Positions 2,567 through 10,210 of a DNA stretch of 64,000 bases are shown piece after piece; the stretch's first letter is position 1; each line of letters begins with the position of its first letter. The stretch spans positions 81,676 to 145,675 of the forward strand of contig JBHLKM010000012.1 in the NCBI GenBank assembly GCA_048886685.1, in the 5' to 3' direction. The position numbers and the translations under genes were made by a program. The notes under the pieces were generated by a model. That model worked only from the letters and a program-made list of their open reading frames with translations. It did not search any database and was not told where the DNA came from. Source of the DNA: Candidatus Hodarchaeota archaeon. GTDB taxonomy: Archaea; Asgardarchaeota; Lokiarchaeia; Sigyniarchaeales; SOKP01.

Positions 2567-3991
2567 TTAAGTCATTTTCCACCGTGGACCATCTTCTGCA
2601 TCTTCAATCTGAATGCCTACGGTTCGTAATTTTTCTCTTATCTCATCGCTTAACTCGTAATTCTTTTCCTTTCTTGCATTTTCTCTTATATTGATTATGA
2701 GTTCCATTAATTCATTTACTTTTGCATCATCAATTCCTTTCTTTTTAGTGAAATCAAGTCCTAAAACCCCAAGTAATTCAAGAAGTGTCTCACTTGCTCT
2801 GTTGAGTATATCCTTTTTATTATCGAGTGATGAGTTAATTTGTCTTATGAATTCATGAATAGCGGCTAATGCTTTTGGTGTATTGAAATCATCATCCATA
2901 GCTTCTTCAAAAGATTGTTTTACCTCTTCTATAGCTTGATTTAGGTTAGTTTTATCTCCACCAGCAGAATCTTTTAGTAAACTTAGACTGTTTTGAATCC
3001 TTTCCACATTCTTCTTTGCATTTTCAATTACATCAGGATTCCAATCAACAGCAGATCTATAATGACCAGATACTAAACCCATACGTACGACTAAACCTCC
3101 ATGCTCATCAATTAATTCTCGAGCAGTTACATAATTTCCTAGGCTTTTGCTCATTTTTTTACCATTTAAAGTTATAAACTCAGCGTGCATCCAATTGCGA
3201 ACAAATTGTTTACCTGTTGCGGCTTCGGCTTGAGCGATTTCATTTGGATGATGGGTTGGAATATGATCAATTCCCCCACCGTGAATATCTATCGTCTCTC
3301 CTAAATATTTCATGGCCATAATAGAACATTCAAGATGCCATCCAGGATATCCTTCACCCCAGGGAGAGTCCCATCTCATTACATGTATTTGATCTCCTTT
3401 TTGTGCATTTAACCACAGTGCAAAGTCAAACGGACTCCTTTTTAATGGATCTTCGTCAACTCTAGCTTTTGCTAATTCTTCATCAAGTTTTAACCTTGAA
3501 AGTTTGGTGTAATCTTTGAATTTAGAAACATCGTAATAAACATTTCCTTCCACTTCATAGGCGTAACCTTTTTCCAAAAGTATCTTAATAAGGTCGATCA
3601 TTTCAGGAATGAGTGAAGTCGCTCGAGGGGAAATATTAGGTCTATTTATATTTAGATCATCAATCACCCGCCAATATTCTTCGATTTGCCTATCTACAAG
3701 TTCCCAAGGATTGATTTTTTCTTCACGTGCTCTTTTTTCAATTTTATCTTCTCCCTGATCTGCATCATCTGTTAAGTGTCCGACATCAGTAAAGTTTTGT
3801 ACGTGAAACACTTTATATCCTTTATAACGTAAATAACGGATAATTACATCCCATGAACTATAGGTCCTAGCATTCCCAATGTGAACGTCATCGTATACGG
3901 TTTGCCCACATGTGTAGATCTTCACATGACCCTCTTCGAGAGGTGTAAAAACTTCTTTCTCTCTTGTCATTGTATTATAGATTTTGAGCAT
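2567..3991 (-). CDS. cysS: cysteinyl-tRNA synthetase
   Basis: YTCGQTVYD, HIGN, PGWHLEC, DIHGGG, KMSKS. Start taken at MLKIYNT (3991). Confidence 0.97.
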   Translation of the reverse strand: MLKIYNTMTREKEVFTPLEEGHVKIYTCGQTVYDDVHIGNARTYSSWDVIIRYLRYKGYKVFHVQNFTDVGHLTDDADQGEDKIEKRAREEKINPWELVDRQIEEYWRVIDDLNINRPNISPRATSLIPEMIDLIKILLEKGYAYEVEGNVYYDVSKFKDYTKLSRLKLDEELAKARVDEDPLKRSPFDFALWLNAQKGDQIHVMRWDSPWGEGYPGWHLECSIMAMKYLGETIDIHGGGIDHIPTHHPNEIAQAEAATGKQFVRNWMHAEFITLNGKKMSKSLGNYVTARELIDEHGGLVVRMGLVSGHYRSAVDWNPDVIENAKKNVERIQNSLSLLKDSAGGDKTNLNQAIEEVKQSFEEAMDDDFNTPKALAAIHEFIRQINSSLDNKKDILNRASETLLELLGVLGLDFTKKKGIDDAKVNELMELIINIRENARKEKNYELSDEIREKLRTVGIQIEDAEDGPRWKMT

Positions 3992-4065
3992 AAGAAAGAA
4001 AAGCATAAAGAAATATAATAATTTTACGGAGATTTAATATAATATTGGTACTGAAAAAAGGGAAT

Positions 4066-6921
4066 TTAGTTTTTTACCTCAATATACACTTCGACCAAAT
4101 TATTATCTATTTTAAATTGCTTAGAATCTACATTGCTTTCAACCTTTTTAAAAATATTATCTGCTTGTATCAGATTTTTAATTTTTTCTTCGTGTGTGTC
4201 AAGTGCTTCCAAGATCTCTTTATCTTTTGTTGTCAGATAAAGATTAATTCTATTTTTTGGTGATAATTTCAATTTTTTTCTATAGTTGTTCAAATGCCTA
4301 ATCAGGTTTCTAGCAATACCTTCTAACCTTAATTTTGATGTGATTTCTGTGTCTAAATCAACTAAAAGTTCCTTTTCTTCTTCGTTTTCAATTATTACAT
4401 TTCTCACATTTATAACTCTGGCGATGACATCTAAATATTCCTTTTTAAGACTTACTCCCTTTAAAATTACTTTTTGTAATATCTGCCTTACAGGAATTTT
4501 AGAATTTTCTCTTAGTTCTAATGATCTCTTTACTATTTCTCTTGCTAGATCCATTTTTTCATGTATCTTAAGATTAATTAATTTTTCATCAAATGAGGGC
4601 CAAGACTCCAAATGGACAGATATTAAATCAACAAGACCTCTTTCTCTTAGTTTTTTGTAGATCATCTCAGAAATAAATGGAGTAAGAGGGGCTAGGAGTT
4701 TTGATAAATTAGAGAGAATATACGAAAGCGTATTCATCGCAGTAAGTTTCTCATTTATGTTTTCACTTTTAAACCGTTCCCTACTGTTTTTAAGGTACCA
4801 TGTAGAGAGATCTTCAACAAAACTAAAGAACAACCTACTTACTTCTGCAGTATCATAATCATCCAAACGTTGAGTAATATCACGGATTAGGACATTGAGT
4901 AAACTAATAATCCACTTATCTAAGATATTCTCTGAAATGGTAAGATCTACGGTTAGATCGTTGATTTCAATCATTGAATAAAATCTTAAAACATTAATTA
5001 ATAGTAAATTAAATCTTCGATAAACTTGCTTGACTATCTCTTCTTTAAAGTTTAAATCCTGTGCTCTCATTAATTGTGAAGATAAAAGATAAATCCTTAA
5101 AGCGTCTGCTCCGTACTTTTCCACGATGAGATTCGGATCGGGGAAGTTTCTCTTTGACTTTGACATTTTAGTTCCGTCCTCTGCGAGGATATTACCATTT
5201 ACAACAACATTTTTAAATGGAATTTCGTCAAATAAAAGTGTTGAAATTACATGCATATAGTAAAACCATGCTCTAACCTGTCCAATATATTCTGAAACAA
5301 AGTCACTAGGAAAATTACTTTTAAACCATTCCACATTTTCAAATGGATAATGTTTTGCAGCATATGGCATCGATCCTGATTCTAACCAACAATCAAATAC
5401 TTCAGGGATTCGATTCATGACTCTTTTACAAGTTGGGCATGTTAGATGTATCTCATCAACTATATGTCTGTGTAAATCCAAATCATTAGGAACCTCTTCA
5501 ACCGCATTCTCTTGTAATTCTTTAACCGAACCAATGACTTTAATTTCGTGACATTCCTCACACACCCAAATTGGCATAGCTGTAGCCCAAAACCGATTTC
5601 TAGAAATACACCAGTCAGGAGCAGTTTCAATTATGCTTTGAAATCTTTTGGAAATTTCTTTGGGATACCAATTAATTTTTTGATTATTTTCCAAGAGTCG
5701 TGGTTTTATTCGCTGAATATCTATAAACCATGCGTCAAGAGCATTATACATTAATGGAGTATCACATCTATAACAAAACGGATAAGAATGTGTGTAAGTT
5801 TCTGAATTGAATAGAAGATTCCTCTGTTTTAAGTCCTCCAAAACTTCTTCATCCAGATTCTTGAACCACATCCCAATCCAATCCTTCGGACCACTTTTTA
5901 ACTCCCCATGTTCATCAATATGTTGAATTAAAGGCAAATTGTACTTTTTTATCATATCATAATCAAATTCACCATAAAGTGCAAGATGGATAATTCCTGT
6001 TCCTTCTTCAGAAAGTACATCATCACCACCATCTATAACAGTATGACCATTTCCATTGGAATCAGTAGCAACTTGATATAAAGGTTCGTATTTTTTATCT
6101 AATAGTTTTTTTCCCTTAAATTCTTCAATTATTTCATATTTATCTTTGATAAGATCTAATTGATTTTTAATTAAAATTAAAAAATCACTGTCAATTTTTA
6201 TTTTAACATAGACTTGTTCACTATTTACAGCTAACGCAACATTTCCTATTAAAGTCCAGGGTGTTGTAGTCCATGCTAGTAGAAATGTGTTTGGTTCTTC
6301 TTTCAACTTAAATTTAGCTGTTACAGATTCTTCAGTAACATCTTTATAGCTGTTATCCATAGAAATTTCGAAATTAGAAAGTGGAGTTTCACACCGTGGA
6401 CAATAGTATAAAACTTTCTTACCCTTATATACAAATCCTTCCATATAGATTTTCTTAAAAATATACCACACAGTTTCCATATATGTATTATCCATAGTCT
6501 TATAGGAATTTTCAAATTCAATCCATTTACCCATTCGGTCAACAGTATTCTTCCATTCATTTGTATACCAGAGTACTTTCGAACGGCAAAATTCATTGAA
6601 TTCTGAGATTCCCATTTCATATATTTCATTCTTCTGTCTTAAATTAAGAGCTTCTTCACATATGCTTTCTATTGGAAGACCATGACAATCCCAACCCCAC
6701 TTTCTCTCACAATGGTACCCTTTCATTGTCCAGTATCTTGGAAATACGTCCTTGGTAACAAAACTTAAGATGTGGCCATAATGAGGTAACCCTGTTGCAA
6801 ATGGGGGACCATCATAAAATATATACGGGTTATTTTCCGGTCTTTGTTCAACACTTTTTTCAAAGATTTTGTTATCCTTCCAAAATTGGATGAGTTCTAT
6901 TTCTTTTTCATTATAAGACAT
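4066..6921 (-). CDS. ileS: isoleucyl-tRNA synthetase (IleRS2, archaeal/eukaryote-like type)
   Basis: DGPPFATGLPHYGH, GWDCHGLPIE, WTTTPWTL, DWCISRNRFW, KMSKS. Start likely ATG 6921 (MSYNEK), preceded by GGAG. The ORF extends to 6954. Confidence 0.97.
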   Translation of the reverse strand: MSYNEKEIELIQFWKDNKIFEKSVEQRPENNPYIFYDGPPFATGLPHYGHILSFVTKDVFPRYWTMKGYHCERKWGWDCHGLPIESICEEALNLRQKNEIYEMGISEFNEFCRSKVLWYTNEWKNTVDRMGKWIEFENSYKTMDNTYMETVWYIFKKIYMEGFVYKGKKVLYYCPRCETPLSNFEISMDNSYKDVTEESVTAKFKLKEEPNTFLLAWTTTPWTLIGNVALAVNSEQVYVKIKIDSDFLILIKNQLDLIKDKYEIIEEFKGKKLLDKKYEPLYQVATDSNGNGHTVIDGGDDVLSEEGTGIIHLALYGEFDYDMIKKYNLPLIQHIDEHGELKSGPKDWIGMWFKNLDEEVLEDLKQRNLLFNSETYTHSYPFCYRCDTPLMYNALDAWFIDIQRIKPRLLENNQKINWYPKEISKRFQSIIETAPDWCISRNRFWATAMPIWVCEECHEIKVIGSVKELQENAVEEVPNDLDLHRHIVDEIHLTCPTCKRVMNRIPEVFDCWLESGSMPYAAKHYPFENVEWFKSNFPSDFVSEYIGQVRAWFYYMHVISTLLFDEIPFKNVVVNGNILAEDGTKMSKSKRNFPDPNLIVEKYGADALRIYLLSSQLMRAQDLNFKEEIVKQVYRRFNLLLINVLRFYSMIEINDLTVDLTISENILDKWIISLLNVLIRDITQRLDDYDTAEVSRLFFSFVEDLSTWYLKNSRERFKSENINEKLTAMNTLSYILSNLSKLLAPLTPFISEMIYKKLRERGLVDLISVHLESWPSFDEKLINLKIHEKMDLAREIVKRSLELRENSKIPVRQILQKVILKGVSLKKEYLDVIARVINVRNVIIENEEEKELLVDLDTEITSKLRLEGIARNLIRHLNNYRKKLKLSPKNRINLYLTTKDKEILEALDTHEEKIKNLIQADNIFKKVESNVDSKQFKIDNNLVEVYIEVKN

Positions 6922-6970
6922 ATTTCTCTCCATATATGTAGTTTTTTGGTGCATTTAACTAATTGGTTTC

Positions 6971-7080
6971 AAAAAAATTAATTATAATATTTGATATTTT
7001 AGGATTTTATTCAAAATTCTCGATTTTCTCTATTTATGAAGCAGGATGTGGAGTAGGAGTCATAAAATTCGCTTCATAAA
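6971..7080 (-). promoter_or_regulatory. putative attenuator region: stem-loop plus downstream oligo-U tract in the ileS leader
   Basis: Perfect 10-bp inverted repeat tttatgaagc (7033-7042) / gcttcataaa (7071-7080), beginning 9 nt after the leader stop. A7 at 6971-6977 gives U7 on the ileS mRNA. Confidence 0.5.
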
Positions 7081-7089
7081 GAAAGGAAT

Positions 7090-7164
7090 TTACCTAATAA
7101 TAATAGCGGATGCGATAGTAATCATATTTAGATTCGATTTCAAGAAATTAGTATTTTTATCCAT
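7090..7164 (-). CDS. putative Ile-rich leader peptide of ileS (MDKNTNFLKSNLNMITIASAIIIR; shorter form from ATG 7125, MITIASAIIIR)
   Basis: Hand translation of the minus strand: ATG GAT AAA AAT ACT AAT TTC TTG AAA TCG AAT CTA AAT ATG ATT ACT ATC GCA TCC GCT ATT ATT ATT AGG TAA. Five Ile in the last 10 sense codons, same strand and directly upstream of ileS. Confidence 0.6.
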   Translation of the reverse strand: MDKNTNFLKSNLNMITIASAIIIR

Positions 7165-7180
7165 TCTTTCCACATCCACG

Positions 7181-7194
7181 TTTATATTATAAAT
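7181..7194 (-). promoter_or_regulatory. candidate TATA box for the leader-ileS transcript
   Basis: TTTATAATATAAA on the minus strand about 20-30 nt upstream of ATG 7164, consistent with a leaderless uORF. AT-rich background limits confidence. Confidence 0.3.
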
Positions 7195-7338
7195 AAGGAA
7201 AATTAATGTTAAAAATGTGATGGTATTTCAATTATGCTTGTTGTAGACCAAAGAATAACATTTATCTTTTTAGCTCAAATATAAAAAATCTGAATTTATC
7301 AAATAGATATTATTGATTTATAATGGAACCGTTAAAAA

Positions 7339-7899
7339 ATGACAGAAAAACCGGAAAAACCACTGAAAAATCTAGTTTTGAAATTAGCTTTATTGGGAGA
7401 TCCTGCTGTCGGTAAGACGTCTCTCATTCATCAATACATCCAACATCATTTTAGGGAAGATTATCAACCAACTTTAGGTGTGAATATTGTTGTTAAGGAA
7501 CTATTAATTGAAGAGGTAAATGTATTTGGTCGATTAGTTTTATGGGATATTGCTGGACAAGACAAATATGATCTTTCTCGAAGAATGTTTTTTCAAGGTT
7601 GTCGGGGTGCTTTACTAGTTTATGACACGACGAGACAATCAACCTACAAAAATATTGAAAAAAAATGGTTGGAAGATTTTCAAAAATATACTGAAAGAGA
7701 ACCCGTTTATGTTCTTATTGGAAACAAAACTGATTTAAAAGACTCTAAAGTGGTGTCCACAGAGGACGGGAGAATTTTAGCTGAGAAAATAAAGGCAAGT
7801 GCTTTTGTTGAAACAAGTGCAAAATATGGGGATAATGTAGAAAATGCTTTTAAAAAATTAGTTAATCAAATTTTAATAAATACAGGAGTAGATATTTAA
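7339..7899 (+). CDS. Rab/Ras-like small GTPase
   Basis: GDPAVGKTS, PTLG, WDIAGQ, NKTD, ETSAK. Confidence 0.95.
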   Translation: MTEKPEKPLKNLVLKLALLGDPAVGKTSLIHQYIQHHFREDYQPTLGVNIVVKELLIEEVNVFGRLVLWDIAGQDKYDLSRRMFFQGCRGALLVYDTTRQSTYKNIEKKWLEDFQKYTEREPVYVLIGNKTDLKDSKVVSTEDGRILAEKIKASAFVETSAKYGDNVENAFKKLVNQILINTGVDI

Positions 7900-7953
7900 A
7901 TTCAAATGAAACTTGATAATTCTTATAATATAATTATCTGATTAGGTTAAAAA

Positions 7954-8382
7954 ATGAAGAGTATTGAATCCAAAATTAAACGTGTGATAATTGGCAAAAT
8001 TGAACCTGATGAAGATCTTATAGAATCAATAATCCAAATGATAAAACTTCACGATATCAAATCGGGTTTAGTTAATTGCATAGGAGCTTTGAAAAAATAC
8101 ACAATAGGATATTTTGATGTCGATTCAAAAAAATATTTGCAGAAGACTTTTGATGAATATATAGAACTAGTTTCATGTATGGGTAATATCTCATTTAAAG
8201 ATGGAGAACCAGTAGTTCACCTTCATATCTCCATTGGAACCAAAGATTATAATATATTTGGGGGTCATCTATTTCAACCAAGTATCATCTCAATTACAGG
8301 GGAGGTATACATTTTCGAAATTGATAAAAAGTTAAATCGAGTTAATGATCCTCAATTAAACTTATCTCTTTTAAATATTTAA
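7954..8382 (+). CDS. PPC/DUF296 domain protein
   Basis: IGAL, ELVSCMGNIS, HLHISIG, GGHL. Confidence 0.9.
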   Translation: MKSIESKIKRVIIGKIEPDEDLIESIIQMIKLHDIKSGLVNCIGALKKYTIGYFDVDSKKYLQKTFDEYIELVSCMGNISFKDGEPVVHLHISIGTKDYNIFGGHLFQPSIISITGEVYIFEIDKKLNRVNDPQLNLSLLNI

Positions 8383-8399
8383 TAAGTGGAGAATATAAA

Positions 8400-8945
8400 A
8401 TGGTAGCAAAAAAGATAAACTTGAAGTTAGCCTTGCTCGGAGATGGTGCAGTAGGTAAGACTTCCTTGATTAACCGTTATACAGAAGAAAGTTTTAAAGA
8501 AAACTATCAGCCAACTTTAGGAGTTAACATAGTGATGAAGAAGTTGAAAATCGAAGAATATGAAATCCAACTTGCAATTTGGGACATTGCTGGTCAAGAT
8601 AAATATGATTTAACCCGAAAGATGTTTTTTGAGGGTTGCGCTGGAAGCCTTCTTGTATACGATATTACTAGAGCTGCTACCTTTGATCGAATTCAATCAA
8701 AATGGCTCAAGGATTTCAAAAATTTTGCACGCCCTGATGGAGTTTATATTTTGCTTGGAAACAAAGTTGATTTAAAAGAATCATGTGCCGTATCTTCAGA
8801 AAAAGGTCATGATTTAGCAGAAGAAATTCAAGCAAGCGATTTTATTGAAACGAGTGCCAAAATTGGTAACAATGTTGAAACCGCCTTTAGGAGATTAGTT
8901 GTTCAAGCGTTAAGCAACATCGGGATTAATATTAAACTCAACTAA
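8400..8945 (+). CDS. Rab/Ras-like small GTPase
   Basis: GDGAVGKTS, WDIAGQ, NKVD, ETSAK. Confidence 0.95.
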   Translation: MVAKKINLKLALLGDGAVGKTSLINRYTEESFKENYQPTLGVNIVMKKLKIEEYEIQLAIWDIAGQDKYDLTRKMFFEGCAGSLLVYDITRAATFDRIQSKWLKDFKNFARPDGVYILLGNKVDLKESCAVSSEKGHDLAEEIQASDFIETSAKIGNNVETAFRRLVVQALSNIGINIKLN

Positions 8946-9007
8946 AATTATGTAGTTTATGGCTATTATTAGAGTTTTAAATAAAATTTTATATAATAAA
9001 AAAACAT

Positions 9008-9571
9008 ATGATTGGAGATTATAAAGGAGAAGTAAAATTTAAAGTTGTTACTGCACTGCTTCAAGCGTATCAAGATATACTTGATTATGATGGAATGAAA
9101 TCCGTTTTGAAAGAAGCAGGAATGCTCCATTTAAAGAATATAAGAGATGAAGATCAAAATCAATTTTTAGATTTTTTCTCATTTAAAAAAATAATAGCTG
9201 CTCAAAATTGTTTATTATATGATTCTTCTATGCTCCTTTTTGAAATTGGGAAGAAATTTTCATTTTATTTATTTCCCTATGGAAAAAAATTCGAGGAAAT
9301 TATCTCAGAAATAAATACAATTATTATTACCGATTGGAAAGTAGAAATTGTAGAAAATTCTCCAGATAATATTGTTATATCGGTTCAAAAGTGTATTTTT
9401 TGCTCTGAAATTGGAGTACCCTGTGATCTCTTTAAAGGATTTCTAGTACATTCCTTAGAAAAGTCATTTCCCTCAGAATATGGAATAACTCATTTTGGAG
9501 AGAAAGAAGACTTAAAGGATCCCAATCATAATACTTTTCTTTTAAAATTAAAAATCGAAAAGAAGTATTAA
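9008..9571 (+). CDS. V4R / Bet3-fold-like domain protein
   Basis: LLFEIGKKF helix and KCIFCSEIGVPCDLFKGFL (CxxC...C..xxG pattern typical of V4R). Confidence 0.6.
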   Translation: MIGDYKGEVKFKVVTALLQAYQDILDYDGMKSVLKEAGMLHLKNIRDEDQNQFLDFFSFKKIIAAQNCLLYDSSMLLFEIGKKFSFYLFPYGKKFEEIISEINTIIITDWKVEIVENSPDNIVISVQKCIFCSEIGVPCDLFKGFLVHSLEKSFPSEYGITHFGEKEDLKDPNHNTFLLKLKIEKKY

Positions 9572-9649
9572 ATATACAAACAACAATATGTGAATTACTT
9601 TTGATCGATTGAAGAAATCTCAGTAAGTTTACAGAAATTCTAGTTAAAG

Positions 9650-10210
9650 ATGTTAAAGATGGTTGAATTTATCCCTATTGATCTTAATGTTCATAGATCC
9701 ATATTAGTGGATTTGAACGAGGAATTTTTGTCTTGGATTGCCAATGAAATGAAAAAACATTATGATCTTGATATTTTTAATGTGGAGGGTACTGTTCAGA
9801 ATAATAGAATAGAAATAAGATCCCTCATAAGAGTTTATGCAGAAATTAGTGTAGAAAATATTACCTCATATATACCGATGGAAGGAATTTATTACATCCT
9901 GCAATTAAATGAAAAGATAGCTGGAATGGGTGCTCTTCGAAAGATTAAGACAAATATTGGGGAAATTAAAAGAATGTATATTAGACCAGAGTACAGAGGG
10001 AAGGGTCTTGGAAAGGCATTATTACAAAAACTATTAAGAAAAGCTAAGGAATTTCAATTTTCAATAATTCGACTTGAAACAGGGAAATTTATGACTACAG
10101 CACAGTATATTTATCATAAAGTCGGATTCCGAGAAATAGATGAATATCCCGAAATTGAAACACCTCCCCCTCTTCGACCCTATTGGCTATTTATGGAAAA
10201 AATGATATAA
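9650..10210 (+). CDS. GNAT family N-acetyltransferase
   Basis: EIKRMYIRPEYRGKGLGKALL, A..IY.K.GF. Confidence 0.92.
   Translation: MLKMVEFIPIDLNVHRSILVDLNEEFLSWIANEMKKHYDLDIFNVEGTVQNNRIEIRSLIRVYAEISVENITSYIPMEGIYYILQLNEKIAGMGALRKIKTNIGEIKRMYIRPEYRGKGLGKALLQKLLRKAKEFQFSIIRLETGKFMTTAQYIYHKVGFREIDEYPEIETPPPLRPYWLFMEKMI

Follow-up and report, generated by a model that had tools for sequence, protein, structure and literature searches.

Leader-peptide attenuators are well known in bacteria, with ilvL, thrL, trpL and hisL of E. coli as examples and with pheM standing before the synthetase genes pheST. The tnaC leader is Rho-dependent and does without an intrinsic terminator. Vecchione and Sello reportedly described in 2010 an attenuator that controls the auxiliary, antibiotic-resistant TrpRS of Streptomyces. 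Archaea, to our knowledge, have no Rho; aCPSF1/FttA is the archaeal homologue of eukaryotic CPSF73. Attenuators have further been predicted before leuS and trpS of Streptomyces (PMC1262725), and small ORFs in the 5'-UTRs of Haloferax have been called 'reminiscent' of leader peptides (PMC10117724). In the literature that was searched, whose coverage missed most subscription papers, we found no archaeal leader-peptide attenuator described, and the means by which archaea adjust synthetase and amino-acid biosynthesis genes to the charging of tRNA are largely an open question.

The locus analysed here lies on the minus strand of a 64,000-nt stretch (the window) of contig JBHLKM010000012.1 from a Candidatus Hodarchaeota archaeon. 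A preliminary description of this DNA had pointed to an Ile-rich reading frame before an isoleucyl-tRNA synthetase gene, and the sequence indeed reads so: the ATG lies at 7164, the TAA ends at 7090, and the five Ile codons (ATT 7122-7120, ATC 7116-7114 and three ATT at 7104-7096) all fall within the last 10 sense codons. The perfect 10-bp stem described with it (7080-7071 / 7042-7033) is likewise present, 9 nt after the stop. The features of the locus and of similar leaders elsewhere in the genome are collected in Table 1. Judged by sequence comparison, the element is a conserved regulatory leader, hereafter the ileS2 leader. It very probably acts as a sensor in which the ribosome, by reading the leader Ile codons, gauges charged tRNA-Ile.

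Table 1. Coordinates of the ileS2 leader region in the window and of other cognate leaders in the genome (G000)
Feature	Position	Strand	Remarks
Predicted promoter, BRE-like ACC and TATA-like box	7207..7224	-	conserved motif
Segment A (GTGGATGTGGA)	7169..7179	-	SD-like site for the leader ATG; strand common to helices A:B and A:D
Leader ORF	7090..7164	-	24 codons; 20-25 in relatives
Segment B	7106..7114	-	within the leader ORF, just 5' of the Ile run; forms helix P1 with A
Regulatory codons ATT ATT ATT	7096..7104	-	flanked by one free codon on either side, the second followed by the stop
Segment C	7070..7080	-	5' arm of the 10-bp stem, helix P2
Segment D (TCCACATCC)	7044..7052	-	in the P2 loop; complementary to A, helix Palt
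Segment E	7033..7043	-	3' arm of helix P2
U7 tract in the AU-rich spacer	6971..6977	-	candidate premature-termination signal
ileS2, accessory IleRS	4066..6921	-	951 aa when counted from 6921, the conserved start; longest ORF begins at 6954
cysS	2567-4006	-	59 nt after ileS2
Leader L102	L102:316-372; G000:C1, before trpB2 at 369421	+	18 codons, five Trp
Leader L104	G000:C9, 234 nt before archaeal leuS	-	27 codons, Leu codons at the end
Leader L103	G000:C3, 197 nt before leuA	-	36 codons, four TTA at the end
Leader L106	G000:C14, 180 nt before a cysteine synthase-like gene at 115113	+	22 codons, Cys-rich, two Cys last
Leader L105	G000:C2, 188 nt before a cysM-like gene at 109257	+	27 codons, five Cys, SD

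The ileS2 leader shares with bacterial attenuators a short ORF before a synthetase gene, tandem cognate codons near the end of that ORF, an overlap of the ORF with one arm of competing helices, and a strong preference for one synonymous codon (PMC1183508). It departs from them in its archaeal host and promoter type, and a scan found no bacterial-type terminator, that is, no GC-rich hairpin followed by a U run. Whereas pairing of segments 2:3 competes with 3:4 in bacteria, the competing strand is here the SD-like 5' end of the leader itself (A:B versus A:D); the leader also has a stem with a large loop, maybe a pseudoknot, and has no sequence relationship to the bacterial elements. In our analysis it most closely resembles the attenuators before synthetase genes (pheM-pheST, Streptomyces leuS and trpS). 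As with the auxiliary TrpRS of Streptomyces, a spare synthetase rather than the housekeeping copy lies under a cognate-codon leader, but the amino acid and the domain of life differ, and this IleRS scores far below the MupA/MupB cut-offs (687-706 bits, against 1900).

A run of cognate codons, a possible pseudoknot and the lack of an intrinsic terminator are features that the ileS2 leader has in common with the actinobacterial LEU element and cys leaders (PMC1262725). The codon run of LEU, though, base-pairs with the main gene's SD, and no counterpart of that pairing was found in the ileS2 leader. By analogy with terminator-less leaders a factor-dependent output is plausible, the candidate termination factor being aCPSF1/FttA instead of the Rho of tnaC-type leaders. 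The ileS T-boxes of Firmicutes and Actinobacteria place ileS under the control of tRNA-Ile charging, as we propose here; unlike the ileS2 leader, they bind the tRNA directly and have no translated leader. A T-box or known riboswitch was rejected for the window's element, since no Rfam family reached its gathering score and the three sub-threshold matches, at E values up to 10, were unrelated. Because neither an intrinsic terminator nor an Rfam match was found, we do not class the ileS2 leader as a classical attenuator, though it probably works like one.

The leader was present in 36/36 distinct Promethearchaeota regions upstream of ileS2, copies that are related, so that this and the following counts are not independent trials. 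The conserved ORF with a terminal Ile run, for which the preliminary description proposed to test relatives, is present. The start codon is ATG in 35 of the 36 copies and GTG in one. A GTG at 7179 is in frame with the window's leader, and some relatives have ACG, CTG or TTA there; it was ruled out as the true start, as it is not conserved while the start at 7164 is. Between the ATG and the Ile run, 32 aligned copies contained no in-frame stop, against 84 and 62 stops in the other two frames, and every indel was a multiple of 3. Mean identity in the middle of the leader was 64% (minimum 38%) and the peptide is poorly conserved except at its Ile end; a shuffled leader copy stayed open just 16% of the time.

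The three ATT codons were found in 36/36 copies with no synonymous change in the run, contrary to the ATT/ATC/ATA variation that had been anticipated. They stand in the layout TCY-NNN-ATT-ATT-ATT-NNN-stop in 33/36 copies (ATT ATT ATT AGG TAA at the 3' end of the window's leader), and the two free positions flanking them were occupied by 14 and 12 different codons. Spacing is thus kept while codon identity around the run is free, as expected if the ribosome measures distance. In the ileS2 coding sequences of the same genomes, a single codon was kept in 0/18 conserved Ile columns and in 8/312 amino-acid-invariant columns. The invariance of the leader ATT against the variation of these Ile columns indicates selection on the codon or the nucleotides and not on Ile alone; sequence-level selection on the ATT codons is possible, since selection for Ile only does not explain their invariance. 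ATA is decoded by a different tRNA, and the codon preference of an attenuator would account for the exclusion of ATA, but only partly for that of ATC. One particular synonymous codon of an isoacceptor family is expected and preferred in attenuators (PMC1183508). The AUU run had no consistent pairing partner across the copies (mean unpaired 0.54).

A covariance model of the leader gave matches in 29/119 genomes of the family, belonging to two genera, with one match each, and all 28 new loci precede ileS2. The native ileS genes of the family are without this leader, and no homologous copies of the leader RNA were found before other genes. In the genome that holds the window, which has 31% GC and whose proteins are 10% Ile, 15/2094 intergenic uORFs had at least five Ile in the last 10 codons and 37/2621 had III near the end. 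Compared with the other intergenic uORFs, as the preliminary description had suggested, the leader came no higher than about 80th among 3352 when ordered by Ile enrichment, yet among 79 SD-preceded uORFs it was the sole one ending in an Ile triplet. The signal in a single genome is modest, and it is the presence of the leader in all 36 orthologous upstream regions on which chance is dismissed. In two genomes from another family of the order (L027, L028), the native ileS is preceded at about 330-430 nt by an Ile-rich leader of another kind, some 29 codons long. A short KIIS-like stretch is common to it and the ileS2 leader, which makes recruitment from an older native leader possible.

The leader RNA contains two alternative helices that share segment A. 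This segment, with 99% mean identity across copies, was predicted to pair with the 16S 3' tail at -7.4 kcal/mol and at SD distance from the leader ATG; the mean for ileS SDs was -6.5. Segment B ends one codon ahead of the Ile run. In the A:B helix (P1) 95% of the cells were paired, three pairs showed double-sided changes and G-U/G-C exchanges also occurred; none of 500 shuffles was as good, and slid controls gave 15-54%. The A:D helix (Palt) was 99% paired, with two compensated pairs and a mean duplex energy of -16.0 kcal/mol. In L049, the most divergent copy, a G-to-A change in A is matched by C-to-U changes in both B and D; this three-way change, a single event, ties segments A, B and D together. 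A further A:D pair is compensated in L051. The covarying stem pairs that had been sought were found in the C:E stem (P2) as well, which was 95% paired with compensatory changes in four pairs (22 cells), neither figure being matched by any of 500 shuffles, although the covarying pairs of A:B, A:D and C:E come from few independent lineages. The C:E stem closes a loop of about 26 nt and is followed by an A-rich tail. Conservation was 0.99 for A and 0.95 for D, as against 0.80 for C and 0.78 for E. The C:E loop of five copies from the second genus (L045, L046, L047, L063 and L131) has an extra short hairpin with a GAAA tetraloop, absent from the window's genus.

A:B and A:D are mutually exclusive, as they share A, and B lies within reach of a ribosome on the Ile codons. 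Folding of the free RNA at equilibrium gave probabilities of 0.31 for A:B and 0.67 for A:D. In constrained folding with a ribosome footprint on any Ile codon, A:B fell to about 0 and A:D rose to about 0.97, whichever footprint was tried; with a ribosome at the stop, the probability of A:B ranged from 0.35 to 0.0 depending on the footprint assumed. Since A:D is already favoured at equilibrium without a ribosome, the switch must be kinetic. The folding used was pseudoknot-free, and in it C:E was lost, not gained, during the stall; A:D and C:E have no bases in common and could coexist as a pseudoknot. The folding z-score of the leader RNA was -1.27, that is, no better than shuffles. The geometry proposed earlier, in which the 5' arm of the 10-bp stem is covered while the ribosome stands at the stop, is not the best reading: A:B and A:D, which that proposal did not use, are the most conserved pairings, and in constrained folding the ribosome alters access to B. 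The broader idea that Ile-tRNA charging could set ileS expression through a conserved leader ORF coupled to RNA structure is well supported by the comparative evidence.

The motif made of a BRE-like ACC and a TATA-like box is nearly fixed in position in 34/36 copies, lying at -34/-35 from A in 31/36 and at -32/-36 in 3/36. From archaeal TATA-to-start spacing, transcription can be inferred to start near 7184 (+/-3), about 5 nt ahead of segment A. Similar ACC..TATA layouts were seen upstream of Trp- and Cys-codon leaders in this genome. A TATA-like box about 25 nt before the ATG had earlier been taken for the promoter, probably in error. This A/T-rich box (7193-7181) is disfavoured as the main promoter, because the start would then coincide with the ATG and leave out A, a segment that covaries as RNA, and because the conserved BRE and TATA lie further upstream, at 7224-7207. 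It is probably a melting or initiator region, and a second, leaderless start from it is possible.

The gene downstream of the leader encodes an isoleucyl-tRNA synthetase, with a TIGR00392 score above cut-off, as first described. It is however a second, horizontally acquired copy: the native IleRS, also above the TIGR00392 cut-off, lies at G000:C13:126717-129863, has 1048 aa and is about 32% identical to the ileS2 product. The 1048-aa copy is the widespread IleRS of the genus, whereas the short ileS2 was found in 14 of the 24 genus genomes searched; the window's ileS is an accessory IleRS and not the main one of the cell. The next closest proteins to the IleRS2 of Promethearchaeota (Lokiarchaeia), at 54-61% identity, come mostly from Woesearchaeota, Micrarchaeota, Iainarchaeota and Nanoarchaeota. 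A quick ML tree unites the Promethearchaeota IleRS2 in one clade (SH-aLRT 100) within a strongly supported, mostly DPANN group, far from the native copies, and we read ileS2 from these sequences as one horizontal acquisition from a DPANN-like donor. Inheritance of the leader from the donor group was rejected, since the DPANN/CPR homologue loci examined were without segments A and D or a comparable ORF. The cysS gene was present in 22/36 loci, within the limited flanks available, and may share a regulated transcript with ileS2.

The position of the ileS2 start ATG is occupied by ATT or ATA in 18/36 copies (L003, L005, L009, L012, L127 and others). Most of these have a GTG in frame three codons earlier, and ATT/ATA is enriched 3-4-fold genome-wide 6-7 nt behind SD motifs; on both grounds a special role for this start was rejected. 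L009 and L127 have no canonical in-frame start upstream, which makes AUU initiation likely in them. Divergent from the leader, an array of small ORFs extends over 7339-10210 (+) of the window, with Rab-like small GTPases at 7339 and 8400; those of the remaining ORFs that were searched gave no NCBIfam match. A link between the leader and the divergent Rab-like gene was rejected, as the gene is nearby in just 10/36 loci.

We propose that the ileS2 leader exerts co-transcriptional control over the spare ileS2, probably together with cysS. Transcription would start just before A, and a ribosome would load at A and the ATG before B is made. When Ile-tRNA is plentiful, the ribosome would pass the ATT run and leave, and A:B and C:E, the helices that covariation supports, would form. 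The ribosome-free, U-rich spacer would then be the site of cutting or termination ahead of ileS2, with aCPSF1/FttA, acting at U-tracts, as the most likely agent. When Ile-tRNA is scarce, whether through starvation or because the native IleRS is inhibited or overloaded, the ribosome would dwell on the ATT codons and cover B, and A:D would form, as the folding models predict. We infer that the A:D fold lets transcription proceed into ileS2. The kinetic variable would be how long the ribosome holds B, a quick release allowing A:B to form before D exists and a stall leaving A free for D. With A locked into a helix in either fold, each transcript would probably have its leader read a single time, as would suit a one-off transcriptional decision.

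U-tracts of at least four U occur in 33/36 spacers, tens of nt beyond P2, and number 57 against about 39 expected from shuffles (only about 1.5-fold); three copies have none. These tracts are unpaired in either modelled fold, and the models do not explain an effect of A:D on termination. An aCPSF1/FttA orthologue is encoded in the genome (TIGR03675, above cut-off), and a lokiarchaeal aCPSF1 expressed in M. maripaludis reads U4-tracts (PMC8716108). That a coupled ribosome sterically excludes FttA has been put forward as a hypothesis (PMC11616081). The whole proposal, a ribosome-read tRNA-Ile gauge with a transcription-level output on ileS2, stands about midway between likely and unlikely.

Similar cognate leaders were found elsewhere in the genome, in agreement with the suggestion that other synthetase and biosynthesis genes be scanned for them. 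When uORFs were ranked without bias by their amino-acid runs, cognate leaders came out within the first three places for Trp (trpB2), Leu (leuA and the archaeal leuS) and Cys (two cysteine synthases). The Trp-rich leader precedes trpB2 in 10/10 genus genomes with a match, the Leu-ended leader precedes leuS in 13/13 relatives, with synonymous variation, and leaders with Cys runs precede cysteine synthase in 3/3 genomes. The Cys-rich leader L106 is reminiscent of mycobacterial polycysteine leaders; L105 could be either a Cys leader or a small zinc-binding protein. The RNAs of these sister leaders are unrelated in sequence to the ileS2 leader.

Of the other explanations, it is an unlikely but serious one that the same Ile-tRNA sensor acts on the translation or stability of the ileS2 mRNA, with D or the free fold occluding the ribosome-binding site or exposing a nuclease site unless A captures D. 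Segment D is anti-SD-like and is freed when A:B forms, a number of the ribosome sites of ileS2 look like A, a clear terminator is missing, and SD-sequestering T-boxes control the translation of ileS in Actinobacteria (PMC1262725). Occlusion of the ileS2 SD by D was nevertheless rejected as no better than the null, since D binds the ileS2 ribosome-binding site no better than those of other SD-bearing genes, an average of 41% of which bind as well or better. An equilibrium model predicted D to pair with the ribosome-binding site at 0.01-0.04, with the same accessibility of the site across states. Termination-reinitiation works over roughly 30 nt (PMC12548453), whereas the gap here is 126-174 nt, and the blocking of A in both folds argues against repeated loading. 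Binding of a protein or another ligand to the fold and to the invariant AUU repeat, with the ORF simply translated or tolerated, is improbable; a mechanism of this kind has been proposed for the actinobacterial LEU element. Such binding would fit the contrast between ATT x3 in every copy and the variable codons of ileS2, the want of a conserved pairing partner for the AUU run, and the LEU element itself, where a Leu-run leader with a pseudoknot reportedly regulates unaffected by Leu-codon mutation (PMC1262725). However, the same triplet repeat reads as Ile codons ahead of ileS2 but as Leu codons (TTA) ahead of leuA and leuS, the frame being the cognate one each time, and this speaks for decoding rather than for binding of the repeat. 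Synonymous variation occurs in the Leu and Cys runs of the sister leaders, the frame, start codon and codon spacing of the ileS2 leader are all conserved, and single-codon selection is expected in attenuators (PMC1183508).

The geometry first suggested, with the 5' arm of the 10-bp stem masked by a ribosome at the stop and free in the stall, could also be decisive and A:B and A:D secondary, but this is quite improbable. The C:E stem is real and covarying, C lies 7-10 nt from the stop in 35/36 copies, at the edge of the ribosome footprint, and a U-rich stretch would be hidden once C is paired; against this, conservation is higher in A and D than in C and E, and the stall abolishes C:E in pseudoknot-free folding. 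Moreover, transcription reaches E about 45 nt later than C, which lets C:E form after release in either condition. TATA-like runs in the spacer, and its length of 70-114 nt from E to the start, would allow ileS2 a promoter of its own there, the leader then being a separate small RNA or peptide gene. We consider this highly improbable: the element was never found away from ileS2, the peptide is conserved at little but its Ile end, and the aligned spacers hold no conserved BRE and TATA like those upstream of A. A chance ORF and stem in AT-rich DNA is barely conceivable, even though about 1% of the uORFs in one genome look alike and the folding z-score is unremarkable, for conservation in every copy, preservation of the frame and compensatory pairs occur while the neighbouring spacer diverges.

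The transcriptional form of the ileS2 switch can be extended to Asgard archaea in general, though only tentatively: a ribosome stalled on cognate codons would refold the leader and thereby block cleavage and termination by aCPSF1/FttA, the ileS2 switch having been built after the horizontal arrival of a DPANN-type gene, among a genome-wide set of unrelated Ile, Leu, Trp and Cys leaders. If this is true, transcription-translation coupling serves archaea as a regulatory sensor. The hypothesis of a coupled ribosome that excludes FttA/aCPSF1 (PMC11616081) would then be testable on the leader, which at about 170 nt, and being mutable, would be a compact substrate for it. The arrangement would also suggest that a second IleRS is kept as a back-up, switched on when the charging of Ile-tRNA fails. 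A second LeuRS of 929 aa, which matches the bacterial leuS model best, is encoded in the genome at G000:C1:296332-299121 (-), and no Leu-rich leader was seen before it. On the same contig, ARAGORN called a tRNA-SeC at G000:C1:221073-221165 (-).
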